A DNA stretch of 58,105 nt, taken from an uncultured Pseudomonadales bacterium (lineage in GTDB: Bacteria; Patescibacteriota; Microgenomatia; UBA1400; MFAQ01). Below the pieces are notes generated by a model, which was not told the DNA's origin, did not search any database, and saw only the letters and a list, made by a program, of their open reading frames with translations. Location of the stretch: positions 6,800 through 64,904 of the forward strand of contig CAZMCB010000003.1 of the NCBI GenBank assembly GCA_964564895.1, in the 5' to 3' direction. This document shows, piece after piece, positions 29,024-32,984 of the stretch (its first letter is position 1; the number at the start of each line of letters is the position of its first letter). The position numbers and the translations under genes were made by a program.

Positions 29024-31075
29024 CTATTTAGGCCAAGAATAGGATATTAAATATCCCTCGTTTTTAAACATTTCTTGCCACACAGCTTCTGTTACAAAAG
29101 GTACAAAAGGGTGAAGTAGTGCCAGCATTGTTTTATATCCATTTTTCAAAACAGCATCACTAACCAGTTTCTGTTTGTTCATCTCGATGGCCTCATCACA
29201 AAACCAGTGCCAGAACTCGTTGTAAGCCGTCTCAGACGCCAAACCCACCTTCATCTGATCAAGGAGCTTGGTAACTTCTGTAGTGACAGCTGAAAGCTTA
29301 TTCTCAAACTCTTCATCCATTTCACCTTTAAGCACAATTTCTGCTTCCGGTTTTTCTACAATAAATCTTCCGGCATTCCATATCTTATTTCCAAAATTTC
29401 TCATTCCACGAACTTTATTTTCTCCTGTATTACTATCTTGACCTGCTGTTGTGCTCATGACAAGAGCCATACGTAGAGAGTCTGTGCCATACTTGGCGCA
29501 AAGCTCCAATGGATTAATCGCATTTCCCTTGCTCTTGCTCATTTTTTGCCCCTTTTCATCTCTTACCAGCCCATGAAGATAAACAGATTTAAAAGGAGAC
29601 TTTCTTGTTAAATAAATACCCAACAGCATCATTCTCATTACCCAAAAGGGGAGAATATCATAAGCGGTTTCCATCACATCAGTTGGATAATATGCCTCAA
29701 AATCACCAACCAAGTTTGTTTTTAGAGTAACCACAGGCCACTGTCCTGAAGAAAACCATGTATCAAAAGTATCGGTTTCTTGGATATATCCTTCTCCTGG
29801 AGAGGTCTCTGAGACGACAAAATCAGTCTTACTTGAGTCGCGATACCAAACAGGAATCTGAATTCCCCAAACAATCTGACGACTAATATTCCAGTCGCGA
29901 AGGTTCATAAGCCAATGTCGCAAGATTTTATCTCTTCCTGCCCCCAATATTTTGGTTTCTTTCGTATCAAGAGCCGACAATGCTTTCTCAGCTAGAGGCT
30001 TAACTTTGATAAAAAATTGTTTAATTGGAAGAGGCTCGATTGCTCTATTGCAGCGATAACAGACACCCACACTATGAGAATATGGTTTCACCTCAACAAG
30101 ACTACTTCCAAGATCAGTAATTATTTTCTCTCTACACGCGAACACAGATAAGCCAGCATAATCACCTGCCGCTTCAGTCATCTTTCCATTTGTGCCAATA
30201 ACCGAAATTACTTCTAAATTGTGTCGCAACCCAACCTCCCAATCATTTGGGTCATGCGCCGGAGTAATTTTAACTGCACCTGTTCCAAACTCCATGTCTA
30301 CCATTTCGTCACCCACAATTGGAATTTCTCTGTCGATTAATGGAATTCTTACTGTTTTACCTATTAAACTACTAAATCGCTTATCCTTAGGGTTCACAGC
30401 CACTGCAGTATCTCCAAGCATGGTTTCTGGTCTGGTTGTAGCCACTTTGAGCAAACCATAATCAATCGTATAAAGCTTGTCTTCTCGGTCTTCGTGTTCA
30501 ACTTCAAGTTCAGAATACGCAGTCCCGCATTTTGTACAGTAATTAACCAATTTTTCATCTCGATAAATGAGCCCGTCTTCATGGAGCTTCTTAAATGTCT
30601 TAATTACTTCTTTTACGATCAAGGGGTCAAGAGTAAATTTGTATCTACTCCAGTCTGCGCTTGCGCCTAGCTTTTTCATTTGATTCAAAGCAACCCCTGT
30701 ATTTTCTTGAACATAATCCCAAATCATTTTGTACAAAGTCCCACGATCAAAATCAAATCTACTCTTACCTTCCTTAGCCAGTTTTTTTTCGAAAACAAAC
30801 TGAGTTTCTATTCCCGCATGGTCTGTACCGGGAAGCCAAAGAGCAGCCTCGCCCTTCATCCTGTGATAGCGGATAAAGATATCTTCAACTGTTACAAACA
30901 TCGCGTGCCCAATATGCAAAGGATCGTTAGCATTTGGAGGAGGCATGATAATGGTGTATGGCTTCTTTCCGCTTTTCAAAAGTTCTTCTCCTGTTGGAGG
31001 AGTAAACGCACCACTCTCCTCCCAAGTTTTATAGAGTTTATCTTCGTACTGTGTATGATCGTAATTTTTTTGCAT
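29024..31075 (-). CDS. valS: Valine--tRNA ligase (compact, no C-terminal coiled-coil arm)
   Basis: PPPNANDPLHIGHA (HIGH), PGTDHAGIETQ, DWNISRQIVWG, DTFDTWFSSG, KMSKSKGN. Confidence 0.96.
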   Translation of the reverse strand: MQKNYDHTQYEDKLYKTWEESGAFTPPTGEELLKSGKKPYTIIMPPPNANDPLHIGHAMFVTVEDIFIRYHRMKGEAALWLPGTDHAGIETQFVFEKKLAKEGKSRFDFDRGTLYKMIWDYVQENTGVALNQMKKLGASADWSRYKFTLDPLIVKEVIKTFKKLHEDGLIYRDEKLVNYCTKCGTAYSELEVEHEDREDKLYTIDYGLLKVATTRPETMLGDTAVAVNPKDKRFSSLIGKTVRIPLIDREIPIVGDEMVDMEFGTGAVKITPAHDPNDWEVGLRHNLEVISVIGTNGKMTEAAGDYAGLSVFACREKIITDLGSSLVEVKPYSHSVGVCYRCNRAIEPLPIKQFFIKVKPLAEKALSALDTKETKILGAGRDKILRHWLMNLRDWNISRQIVWGIQIPVWYRDSSKTDFVVSETSPGEGYIQETDTFDTWFSSGQWPVVTLKTNLVGDFEAYYPTDVMETAYDILPFWVMRMMLLGIYLTRKSPFKSVYLHGLVRDEKGQKMSKSKGNAINPLELCAKYGTDSLRMALVMSTTAGQDSNTGENKVRGMRNFGNKIWNAGRFIVEKPEAEIVLKGEMDEEFENKLSAVTTEVTKLLDQMKVGLASETAYNEFWHWFCDEAIEMNKQKLVSDAVLKNGYKTMLALLHPFVPFVTEAVWQEMFKNEGYLISYSWPK

Positions 31076-31097
31076 CTACTTTACATTGTATATGTAT

Positions 31098-31161
31098 AAA
31101 AAGCCCTCGTTAATCTCCGGCAAAGGGGACTAACGAGGGCCATCTCAGGCGGTACCACCTC
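31098..31161 (-). ncRNA. T-box riboswitch antiterminator/terminator core upstream of valS
   Basis: Minus strand GAGG-[UGGUACC]-GCC-UGAGAU-GGC-CCUC (31161-31135) overlapping terminator GCCCUCGUUAGUC...GAUUAACGAGGGC-UUUUU (31140-31098). Stem I/specifier not resolved by eye. Confidence 0.85.
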
Positions 31162-31202
31162 GTATTTTACTCATTTATTTTTTTGGGTTCTATTTTCCTT
31201 TC

Positions 31203-31231
31203 GGATTTCTTCCCTTGCTCCCGAAGTGACA
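31203..31231 (-). repeat. Second REP-like unit (GTCAYTTCG...GAAATC class) inside the valS leader
   Basis: TGTCACTTCGGGAGCAAGGGAAGAAATCC; shares GTCAYT start and AATC end with 1773-1810. Confidence 0.35.
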
Positions 31232-31283
31232 AGCCTCGATCAAAGCTCCTCTATTTTATCACCAAGCGATTATCATCTCTGAA

Positions 31284-31592
31284 CTAGACCCCAGTTTGAA
31301 CAATTAAGGCCTGTATTTTTGCTCGAATCTTTGGCAACTCCTCGGCGATATATTTATCGTCTTCTTCCCGAACAATCTCATAAACCATTTCCGACAGCTC
31401 ACCGATTTGATCATCAAGCCGGGGAAGTAGAGCCTTAATTTGTTCGTCGGTAATGTCTTCAGGTAGTCTTTCCAATATCATTTGAGCAATTTCTTTGGCC
31501 CGGTCGCCGCTAATTTCCTTAAGCGCTAATTTCTTTCCAATAGTCGCAACAATCGCTGACTCTAACTGTTCTCTAGTAATGTTTATTTTCAT
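31284..31592 (-). CDS. Small acidic helical hypothetical protein
   Basis: 102-aa ORF, co-oriented with neighbours, 6-nt gap to the upstream gene. Confidence 0.7.
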   Translation of the reverse strand: MKINITREQLESAIVATIGKKLALKEISGDRAKEIAQMILERLPEDITDEQIKALLPRLDDQIGELSEMVYEIVREEDDKYIAEELPKIRAKIQALIVQTGV

Positions 31593-31598
31593 ATCTGA

Positions 31599-32984
31599 TT
31601 ATTTGATTAATTCATTAACTATTTTTAAATAGGCATCTCTTGCCTCAGGATTCTCGGGAGACCTTGCCCCGTGAATTAAACCAAACCCGTATGCATTAAC
31701 TGACAATAATCTTTTATATGTGTCAGTATCCCCGGAATCTCTTGCTGTCTTTAATGCACTATTAAGTTTCGTCAATAGACCGAGATAATCCTGAGAGGAT
31801 ATTTTTTCAGGAATTACAGCTTCTTTTGTGGGGGTCGCTTTTTCAAGCGATACCTCATTTTTCTTTGTAGATAGTTCTACTGGTTGTTCTTTTCCTGAGG
31901 CTATCCCGATTACTTGTCTTTCTGAGAGCTTTTCAATTTGCTCTGAGGGAATTATCCAACCATCCTGGGAGTCCTTTTTCCATCCCATCTTATCTCCAAC
32001 ATAATTTATGTATTCTGTATCGTCATGCGTTTCCTTCGCCAATCGATGAGCTTCCTGTTCAATTTCTTCAGGAATATTGATTCCAAAATTATTACGTTTA
32101 CTGTAATCAGCTTTAGGGTCAAATTCTCCTGAAAGGGGCTGTGAACCAGGTCGACTCATTCTCCCCAAAATGGCGAGTCCCAGCGAAAAATTTCCATTAT
32201 CATCAAACACAGCACCCTCTCTTACCCAGGTAGCTCTTTTCCCTGAAGGCAAAATAGGATCAACCTTTGTTTTCTCCGCAGGAGCTATCTCTTTCTGAAT
32301 AACACCGACCCCTTTACTTTCGAGTGTATTTCGAAGCTGATCAACAGGCACTCCTGATTCCTTGGCAAAGGTTAATAATGTTTGAAATGCATCCTGAGAC
32401 AACTCACCTGATATAACCAGCGGAATTTGTTTATCAATCTCTGATAAATAACCCCGAATTTGGTCGTCATTCAAAGATGAATTCTCTGGCTTGTTGGTTG
32501 TATCTTCAGTAATCTTCACACTCTCATCTTTTTTTTCAAACGACCGAACAGGTGCTTCTGTCTCCGGCATTTCAGCTCGTCGTCTTCTTTTGTCTGCTTC
32601 AATTTCTTCTTCAGTTGTTCCAATATCAAACGGCTTTGTGTTTATGCTACTCTCATAGGCGTTTTCCACCTTTGCTGCGTCTATTCCTCTTTGCTCTGCC
32701 GCTTTTGTTCCGACTTCACCTACTCTTACAGCGGTAGGGGAGGCTAATTTTCCGTCAATTATAGGAGTTTTGTCAAAATCATCGCCAATATTGAAGTTCG
32801 ACGGCTCTGTTCCTGCCAATCGTACTAAGTCAGCCCTGTCTGGAATTCCGGGTGTCTCTTTGTTTAAGGCATTTAAAGCCGCCTCTGTTCCCAGATGATC
32901 GACAGGTTTGGCTTGTTCAACTTGAGGTACTTTAGAAATCTCGGTCGTTTTTTGACCTTCAGAATTGTTTTCGTTTGAATCCAT
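31599..32984 (-). CDS. Acidic low-complexity hypothetical protein
   Basis: 461-aa ORF, no TM; TATAAT 6 nt before ATG. Confidence 0.75.
   Translation of the reverse strand: MDSNENNSEGQKTTEISKVPQVEQAKPVDHLGTEAALNALNKETPGIPDRADLVRLAGTEPSNFNIGDDFDKTPIIDGKLASPTAVRVGEVGTKAAEQRGIDAAKVENAYESSINTKPFDIGTTEEEIEADKRRRRAEMPETEAPVRSFEKKDESVKITEDTTNKPENSSLNDDQIRGYLSEIDKQIPLVISGELSQDAFQTLLTFAKESGVPVDQLRNTLESKGVGVIQKEIAPAEKTKVDPILPSGKRATWVREGAVFDDNGNFSLGLAILGRMSRPGSQPLSGEFDPKADYSKRNNFGINIPEEIEQEAHRLAKETHDDTEYINYVGDKMGWKKDSQDGWIIPSEQIEKLSERQVIGIASGKEQPVELSTKKNEVSLEKATPTKEAVIPEKISSQDYLGLLTKLNSALKTARDSGDTDTYKRLLSVNAYGFGLIHGARSPENPEARDAYLKIVNELIK

Follow-up and report, generated by a model that had tools for sequence, protein, structure and literature searches.

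A reduced T-box-type leader in front of valS in a Collierbacteria genome

T-boxes are the model case of a structured RNA that reads a second one, and the leader of valS, the valine-tRNA ligase gene, in a Collierbacteria genome raises the question of how few parts such a reader may consist of. The host, a tiny-celled bacterium, belongs to the Microgenomates within the candidate phyla radiation (CPR; Patescibacteria), and the leader lies upstream of valS (29024-31075) on the minus strand of the stretch that we analysed, comprising 58,105 nucleotides (nt; positions 6800-64904 of contig 3; hereafter the window, whose first letter is position 1 in all coordinates given without a contig number) of a 769-kb assembly with 50 contigs and 39% G+C. 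The original prediction, made from the sequence letters, had placed a T-box in front of valS in a CPR bacterium, with an atypical 5' half and either remodelled or decaying. The T-box core, a specifier and conservation among relatives bear out the proposal as such, and we consider it probable (about 0.8) that the leader is a functional, reduced T-box maintained by selection, which senses the charging of tRNA-Val(GAC) and controls the transcription of valS.

Anatomy of the valS leader

The 3' half of the leader contains a T-box core, AGGUGGUACCGCC, which is overlapped by a terminator. The antiterminator, matching the core of the Rfam T-box family RF00230, is found on the minus strand at 31162-31134, with the predicted bulge: helix A1 pairs CGAGG (31162-31158) with CCUCG (31138-31134), helix A2 is formed by GCC and GGC and closed by the loop UGAGAU, and the 7-nt T-box bulge UGGUACC (31157-31151), invariant in ten aligned leaders, lies between the two. 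The intrinsic terminator (31140-31103, followed by the U-tract UUUUU at 31102-31098) is supported by energy and covariation; it comprises the 13 contiguous pairs that had been foreseen and two more beyond a C.A mismatch. Its 5' arm shares the 3' strands of A2 and A1, making the conformers mutually exclusive. With computed energies of -25.7 kcal/mol for the terminator and -10.8 kcal/mol for the antiterminator, the former is far stabler, indicating that the default state is 'off', as in known T-boxes. The U-tract precedes the valS ATG by about 24 nt, and no Shine-Dalgarno (SD) sequence is present within or after the hairpin.

We examined the 5' half by a comparison across ten congeners and further family members. 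The conserved block opens at TGATAAAAT (31261-31253), the extended -10 element TG-A-TAAAAT, which had already been noted and which turns out to be the leader's own promoter, P1. The pattern TGnTAnAAT is kept 7-12 nt 5' of Stem I across the family leaders, and the extended -10 is an enriched promoter type in this genome. From P1, a start site is predicted at about 31246, at the first pair of a putative kink-turn (K-turn); from there to the U-tract, the leader measures about 150 nt.

Stem I (31246-31217) is ultrashort, with 30 nt in the order GC-UUU-GA-UCGAGG-(CUUGUCA)-CUUCGG-GA-GC, and was obtained independently by minimum-free-energy (MFE) folding and by RNAalifold. It is built from a C-stem (GC/GC), a 3-nt bulge (UUU), tandem G.A/A.G pairs, a 6-bp helix (UCGAGG/CUUCGG) and a 7-nt apical loop, CUUGUCA. 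The tandem G.A/A.G pairs at its base are invariant in ten leaders, and the C-stem covaries; judged by sequence, this base would form the K-turn that is also a feature of RF00230. The apical loop presents the valine triplet GUC (31230-31228), followed by the conserved purine A31227, in 18 of 18 valS leaders of the family, so that the Val specifier, for which the original prediction had named no position, can be assigned to this loop. A possible stem I had instead been proposed at 31238-31290, on the basis of the motifs AGAGA and GGUGAUAA. That segment is not a stem: it is not conserved as one and coincides with the promoter, AGAGA being unconserved and GGUGAUAAAAU belonging to conserved P1, and the true Stem I had been missed.

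Stem II (31214-31185) consists of a GGG/CCC base, an internal loop with AAGAAA opposite AAAUAGAA, and the tip UCC-GAAA-GGA, and is supported by conservation and covariation. The internal loop is purine-rich and S-turn-like, and its bases are invariant save for the bulged-G position. The earlier assignment of this segment, at the stem II/III position, to a unit resembling repetitive extragenic palindromic (REP) elements does not hold, as the unit is single-copy in the 769-kb genome by blastn and represents the conserved, covarying Stem II. An A-rich linker of 22 nt (31184-31163) then leads up to helix A1, which it abuts, and carries the motif AUGAG-UAA-AAUA, kept in the family.

Several modules of larger T-boxes are missing. 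No CGGG..CCCGU, as required for the IIA/B pseudoknot with its F-box, is found in the linker (31184-31163), and the Rfam alignment gives no credible pairing there; the element does occur in the ileS leader of the same genome and in two further leaders (L044, L053). No Stem III hairpin is predicted between Stem II and A1, where the Rfam alignment leaves 1 nt, and of the surroundings of Stem III only the flanking purine motif AUGAG..AAUA remains. The 30-nt Stem I contains neither the tRNA-elbow platform nor the AG bulge or the distal loop. The 5' half is thus atypical, as had been stated, for reasons other than those given: it is an ultrashort Stem I joined to a Stem II, lacking platform, IIA/B and Stem III. 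Without constraints, both RNAalifold and single-sequence MFE folding arrive at Stem I and its 7-nt loop, at the base of Stem II and at the terminator.

Covariation, specifier and sister leaders

Comparison with the valS leaders of relatives, in which the element is kept with GUC-A in 18 genomes, showed that its helices covary. In an alignment of ten leaders from four genera, evaluated against 500 shuffles and against slid controls, 97.0% of the cells hold standard pairs in the antiterminator structure and 96.7% in the terminator structure, and 10 and 14 pairs, respectively, are changed on both sides. None of the 500 shuffles reached the observed covariation values for either structure, and the slid controls were only 31-53% paired. 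Double compensatory changes affect five of the six helix pairs of Stem I and five pairs of the terminator; two genomes have A-U in place of G-C at a base pair of Stem II (alignment columns 42-107), and a pair of A1 has gone from C-G to A-U in genome G021. In the latter genome, the G of column 159 has become U, and both of its alternative partners, in A1 and in the terminator, have changed from C to A. This change of one position together with two mutually exclusive partners shows directly that selection acts on both conformers. GUCA, the G.A/A.G pairs of the K-turn and the whole bulge remain invariant. The conservation of the element in 18 family genomes is far beyond chance. Of the two fates that had been considered, remodelling is the better description, and decay is disfavoured by the invariant specifier, G.A pairs and bulge and by compensation in every helix across genera.

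The tRNA expected for such a switch is present in relatives. tRNA-Val(GAC) with the discriminator base A73 is identical in all seven relatives searched, among them congeners with and without the leader, and its CCA is not encoded. A73 complements the U of UGGU, as had been proposed, so that bulge and discriminator match. A search with R1, a covariance model trained on the valS leaders, brought up a second miniature T-box in the same genome, in front of ileS (contig 22:5191-5359, minus strand). Its apical loop, AAAUCAC, contains AUC-A and is combined with a minimal Stem II bearing GAA/AGUA, an IIA/B-like element (CGGGUAGCCCGUAAUAGC), a UGGU bulge and a terminator; it has no Stem III. Further sister leaders in the family and the class pair the loop CGC with argS and a UGGU bulge, and UGG with trpS, GAC with aspS and GAC with an archaeal-type phosphoenolpyruvate (PEP) carboxylase, each of these three with a UGGC bulge. 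Trp and Asp tRNAs have G73, fitting UGGC. That the triplet follows the gene and the bulge follows the discriminator base is predicted by a tRNA sensor and by no other model.

This concordance also bears on the idea that the hairpins are the operator of a protein, ValRS or another, in the manner of E. coli thrS. The loop of Stem I is as large as an anticodon loop, and no K-turn protein of the L7Ae/YbxF type, which could serve as a classical T-box helper, was found encoded in the genome, as would suit such a scheme. However, the loop holds the codon GUC and not the anticodon GAC, and hence does not mimic tRNA-Val, and the covariation of UGGNACC with the discriminator base across amino-acid classes is explained only by pairing with the 3' end of a tRNA. 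We therefore regard control by a protein operator as highly improbable.

T-box-type leaders of relatives also stand in front of non-synthetase genes (L142, L144, L148, L149, L154, L155, L157; L147, L156; L176). The targets include an uncharacterised protein of about 345 amino acids and a 766-residue protein with a PPDK_N ATP-binding domain, the leaders of both containing GUGUCAC, and, in addition, an uncharacterised 431-residue protein with the Arg loop CGC and the archaeal-type PEP carboxylase with the Asp loop GAC.

For a leader that senses tRNA-Val, the following course of events can be envisaged. Transcription would start from the extended -10 of P1 (31261-31253) at about 31246, and the first 30 nt would fold into the K-turn and hairpin, whose 7-nt loop would offer GUC and the stacking A. 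Binding of the tRNA would begin with pairing between its GAC anticodon and GUC, and the S-turn-like purine loop of Stem II may, as in the actinobacterial ileS T-boxes of solved structure, clamp the codon-anticodon duplex. Charge would be discriminated at the bulge: in an uncharged tRNA, the 3' ACCA could pair with UGGU and stabilise the weak antiterminator, allowing read-through of the polymerase into valS, whereas with a charged tRNA, or none, the stabler terminator would form and the transcript would end at the U-tract, some 24 nt short of the start codon.

Distribution, loss and a second promoter

Matches to R1 occur in 33 of 44 genomes of the family, with 17 valS leaders scoring above 90 bits and one variant, and at the class level in at least 71 of 301 genomes and at least 61 of 234 genera, strict filters making these counts lower bounds. 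Its forms differ in completeness. In one sister genus, the valS leaders of five genomes (L123 and L125-L128, from G035, G032, G061, G018 and G013) have dispensed with Stem II and comprise about 122 nt, made up of K-turn and specifier hairpin, an 18-nt linker and antiterminator/terminator. At the other end, the valS leaders of Gottesmanbacteria and Chisholmbacteria metagenome-assembled genomes have the same short Stem I, with the loops CCAGUCA and UUCGUCA, and keep an IIA/B-type element and Stem III; RF00230 scores them at 44.8 and 36 bits (E = 6e-7 and 1e-4), below its cut-off. These fuller forms, together with a Clostridia valS leader at 129 bits, indicate that the Collierbacteria form is the reduced end of a series.

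In some leaders of relatives (L008 in G003, L014 in G028, L024 in G021, L015 in G013 and L122 in G034), a hairpin of about 30-45 nt recurs, with the sequence TATAGATTCCGGATCAAGTCCGGAATGAC or variants of it; four genomes have it inserted in the tip of Stem II, and three in the interval between terminator and ATG. This repeat has the look of a small mobile or REP-like element accepted at tolerated positions of the riboswitch, and it is not present in the leader of the genome studied here. One further candidate in this genome, at contig 10:21868-21987 (minus strand, 21.7 bits), combines a K-turn-like start, AGCGAUGA, with a strong terminator and is devoid of a T-box bulge. It sits past a coding region and before a phosphomannomutase-like gene. 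We rejected it as a common gene-end terminator; it is probably a chance match or a far-decayed relic.

Within the genus, five of ten genomes have the valS leader and five have none. In two of the latter, valS begins 13 nt past tsaD, and in the other three the valS ATG is preceded, at a distance of 10 nt, by a TGATAAAAT box. These three (L003, L004 and L005, from G005, G008 and G002), which are without a T-box, read GTGATGATAAAATCAAGGAGTAAATG before valS, and the P1 region of the T-box leader described here reads GGTGATAAAATAGAGGAGC. The similarity of the two suggests that the riboswitch was deleted between promoter and ATG. The switch is ancestral in the family and has repeatedly been lost.

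In all nine congeners, tsaD is the next gene upstream of valS; here, a 102-residue and a 461-residue open reading frame on the same strand come first, followed by tsaD. The two reading frames (31284-32984, minus strand) have no Pfam or NCBIfam matches and no counterpart at the valS locus of the nine congeners, and the segment looks like a 1.7-kb insertion particular to this genome. The regulated gene itself is assigned with confidence, the 683-residue product exceeding the cut-offs of two NCBIfam valS equivalogs (837 and 806 bits) and containing the Pfam domains tRNA-synt_1 and Anticodon_1. The protein is short, ending with the anticodon-binding domain and lacking the C-terminal extension of the 860-residue reference models. 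Neither ilvD nor ilvE was found above cut-off in the assembly. Valine auxotrophy, in line with the amino-acid auxotroph that had been suspected, is thus plausible, and an auxotroph that tunes the supply of the synthetase to tRNA charging would fit this picture.

Downstream of the terminator, the predicted TACAAT is present at 31090-31085, ending 9 nt before the ATG; with TTAACG at a distance of 17 nt, it makes up a candidate second promoter, P2 (31113-31085), from which near-leaderless transcription may provide basal valS expression independent of the T-box. We counted promoter boxes over 685 crude gene starts. TANNNT occurs 5-11 nt before the ATG in 311 cases against about 140 expected, peaking at a 6-nt gap (82 against about 20), and the stringent form TA[TC]A[AT]T in 73 against about 14. 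Across the genome, boxes of the -10 type near starts thus exceed expectation 2- to 5-fold, frequently bearing a TG extension, and SD-like motifs are rare (12% of starts, 7.6% in the background), which points to near-leaderless transcription being common in this genome.

It is therefore conceivable that the T-box works and that valS is nevertheless expressed mainly constitutively, from P2, with the T-box supplying an inducible boost, a variant that refines the proposed mechanism and does not replace it. Apart from the genome-wide excess of -10 boxes, of which TACAAT fits the stringent form at its 9-nt gap, and the rarity of SD-like motifs, this arrangement draws support from six genomes (the genus and G031) that retain TACAAT with a 7-9-nt gap and from the T-box-less congeners with TGATAAAAT 10 nt before the valS ATG. 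However, P2 matches the -35/-10 consensus at 9 of 12 positions, no better than shuffled sequence; the six genomes are close relatives in which the whole leader is conserved anyway; other family members have no box there, and in G003, G028 and G013, where the repeat has been inserted before the ATG, TACAAT is absent; and TACAAT lacks the TG extension of the dominant promoter type. On balance, we hold an active P2 to be slightly the less probable alternative. If it is active, valS would have a constitutive floor, transcribed into an almost leaderless mRNA, and a T-box-controlled boost on top of it.

A number of observations weigh against a working tRNA switch. The leader lacks parts reported as essential in other T-boxes, namely the elbow platform, IIA/B and Stem III. 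In the S-turn-like loop, seven other leaders have AGUA, whereas this one has AAUA, G001 has AUUA and G003 has ACUA; this substitution of the bulged G is the sole sign of relaxation in the leader of this genome. The absence of the leader from half of the genus implies that the switch is dispensable, and P2, if active, could possibly make it marginal. Neither ARAGORN nor blastn found a tRNA-Val in the genome's own incomplete assembly, which holds 16 tRNAs. In a local search of 501 nt, RF00230 scores the leader at 15.5 bits (E = 0.35), far below its gathering cut-off of 93, so that the family search which had been suggested as a check returned a negative result; the low score is accounted for by the deletion, in the alignment, of 76 Stem I positions (leaving 9 nt), IIA/B and Stem III. 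Local Rfam matches such as those to CyaR, CopA and miRNAs were rejected as chance-level noise driven by the terminator. No RNA sequencing runs covering the locus were found; a 287-nt contig from a relative of about 95% identity, from a run labelled metagenomic RNA-Seq in which DNA carry-over is possible, spans 31031-31223 and joins leader, terminator and valS start in one molecule.

Several of these points could likewise be read as marks of a relic that no longer responds to tRNA, in which a constitutive terminator ends the upstream operon and attenuates P1, and valS is transcribed from TACAAT: IIA/B and Stem III are missing, each of the three closest genomes has a different substitute for the bulged G, the leader is gone from half of the genus, and TACAAT falls within the window of 5-11 nt before the ATG in which -10 boxes are enriched genome-wide. 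A relic would be hard to reconcile, however, with the invariance of GUC-A, the G.A pairs of the K-turn and the 7-nt bulge over 18 genomes from several genera, or with compensatory changes in Stem I, Stem II and A1, which are relevant only to the tRNA-bound state. The dedicated promoter P1 is conserved as well, and the genomes in which the repeat was inserted, having no -10 box near the ATG, must depend on read-through. We thus consider a relic unlikely, and favour a functional, reduced T-box responding to tRNA-Val(GAC).

Comparison with known T-boxes

A stronger claim can be derived from this preference, namely that the leader of about 150 nt is a fully working co-transcriptional sensor of charging, made from nothing but a codon loop on a K-turn, an S-turn helix and a T-box bulge, and that it represents one of an uncatalogued class of the Microgenomatia and CPR. 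We put this forward tentatively, at somewhat less than even odds. If it were true, the elbow platform, the IIA/B pseudoknot and Stem III would not be required for transcriptional T-box function, and the Stem II-less sister form of about 120 nt would need even less. The uncatalogued class would span at least Val, Ile, Arg, Trp and Asp, along with non-synthetase targets such as the archaeal-type PEP carboxylase. The codon loop, the bulge and the two alternative helices are under strong purifying selection in this leader and its relatives although all three parts are missing; either the minimal needs of tRNA sensing are far smaller than thought, or CPR bacteria supply an unknown helper. The finding also indicates that standard annotation by Rfam and TBDB overlooks an entire class of amino-acid-responsive regulation in organisms unable to make their own amino acids. 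In the present case, Rfam at gathering thresholds gave no match in the whole window, and RF00230 run over the whole genome returned a single 11-bit match, on contig 4, missing both real T-boxes. The short-stem model of TBDB was searched only in Actinobacteria and among matches to the Rfam model (PMC7778990), and our full-text literature searches found no paper on T-boxes in Patescibacteria, the candidate phyla radiation or Saccharibacteria.

The published record sets out what such a minimal sensor would have to do without. Transcriptional T-boxes generally need a long Stem I with an elbow platform in order to catch the tRNA elbow quickly enough, and specifiers in an apical loop go with a short Stem I, in T-boxes that are actinobacterial and mostly translational. 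Where the platform is absent, Stem II and the IIA/B pseudoknot are needed, deletion of the pseudoknot causing a loss of binding of about 1,200-fold, and an antiterminator without Stem III shows no appreciable tRNA binding (all PMC7583486).

Compared with the canonical T-box of RF00230, exemplified by the Clostridia valS leader L097 at 129 bits, the Collierbacteria leader shares the UGGNACC bulge between A1 and A2, the mutually exclusive terminator, the putative basal K-turn, the specifier with its purine, a codon ending in C (the 'C rule') and the target, valS. It differs in that about 76 nt of Stem I are absent, including the AG bulge, the distal loop and the elbow platform, that the specifier is located in an apical rather than an internal loop, and that there is neither an F-box/IIA/B element nor a Stem III.

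A natural precedent for a transcriptional T-box lacking whole modules is provided by the glyQS T-boxes of Bacilli, which function without Stem II and IIA/B (PMC7583486), and Stem II is also missing from the sister genus described above. The glyQS T-boxes, however, keep a long Stem I with elbow platform and a Stem III, neither of which is found in the valS leader, and they rely on strong GGC-GCC codon-anticodon pairing, whereas the valS leader uses GUC.

As far as the work of Sherwood et al. (2015) is represented in PMC7583486, the closest short or ultrashort Stem I is that of the actinobacterial ileS T-boxes of Nocardia farcinica and Mycobacterium tuberculosis (class II of TBDB, PMC7778990). 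These resemble the valS leader in that a short Stem I presents the specifier in its apical loop, on a K-turn that is putative in the valS leader, in that no elbow platform is present, and in that a Stem II follows, whose S-turn has an S-turn-like loop as its counterpart here. They are translational, however, acting through sequestration of the SD sequence, while the valS leader has an intrinsic terminator with a U-tract; they keep IIA/B and Stem III, while the valS leader has neither; and they are of the isoleucine type and come from Actinobacteria, while the leader described here is of the valine type and comes from the CPR/Patescibacteria. In the actinobacterial T-boxes, IIA/B and Stem II compensate for the missing elbow contact, for which the valS leader retains Stem II only, and the sister genus not even that. 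The valS leader is thus a T-box by the features that define the mechanism, and lies outside RF00230 as modelled as well as outside the translational class of Actinobacteria.

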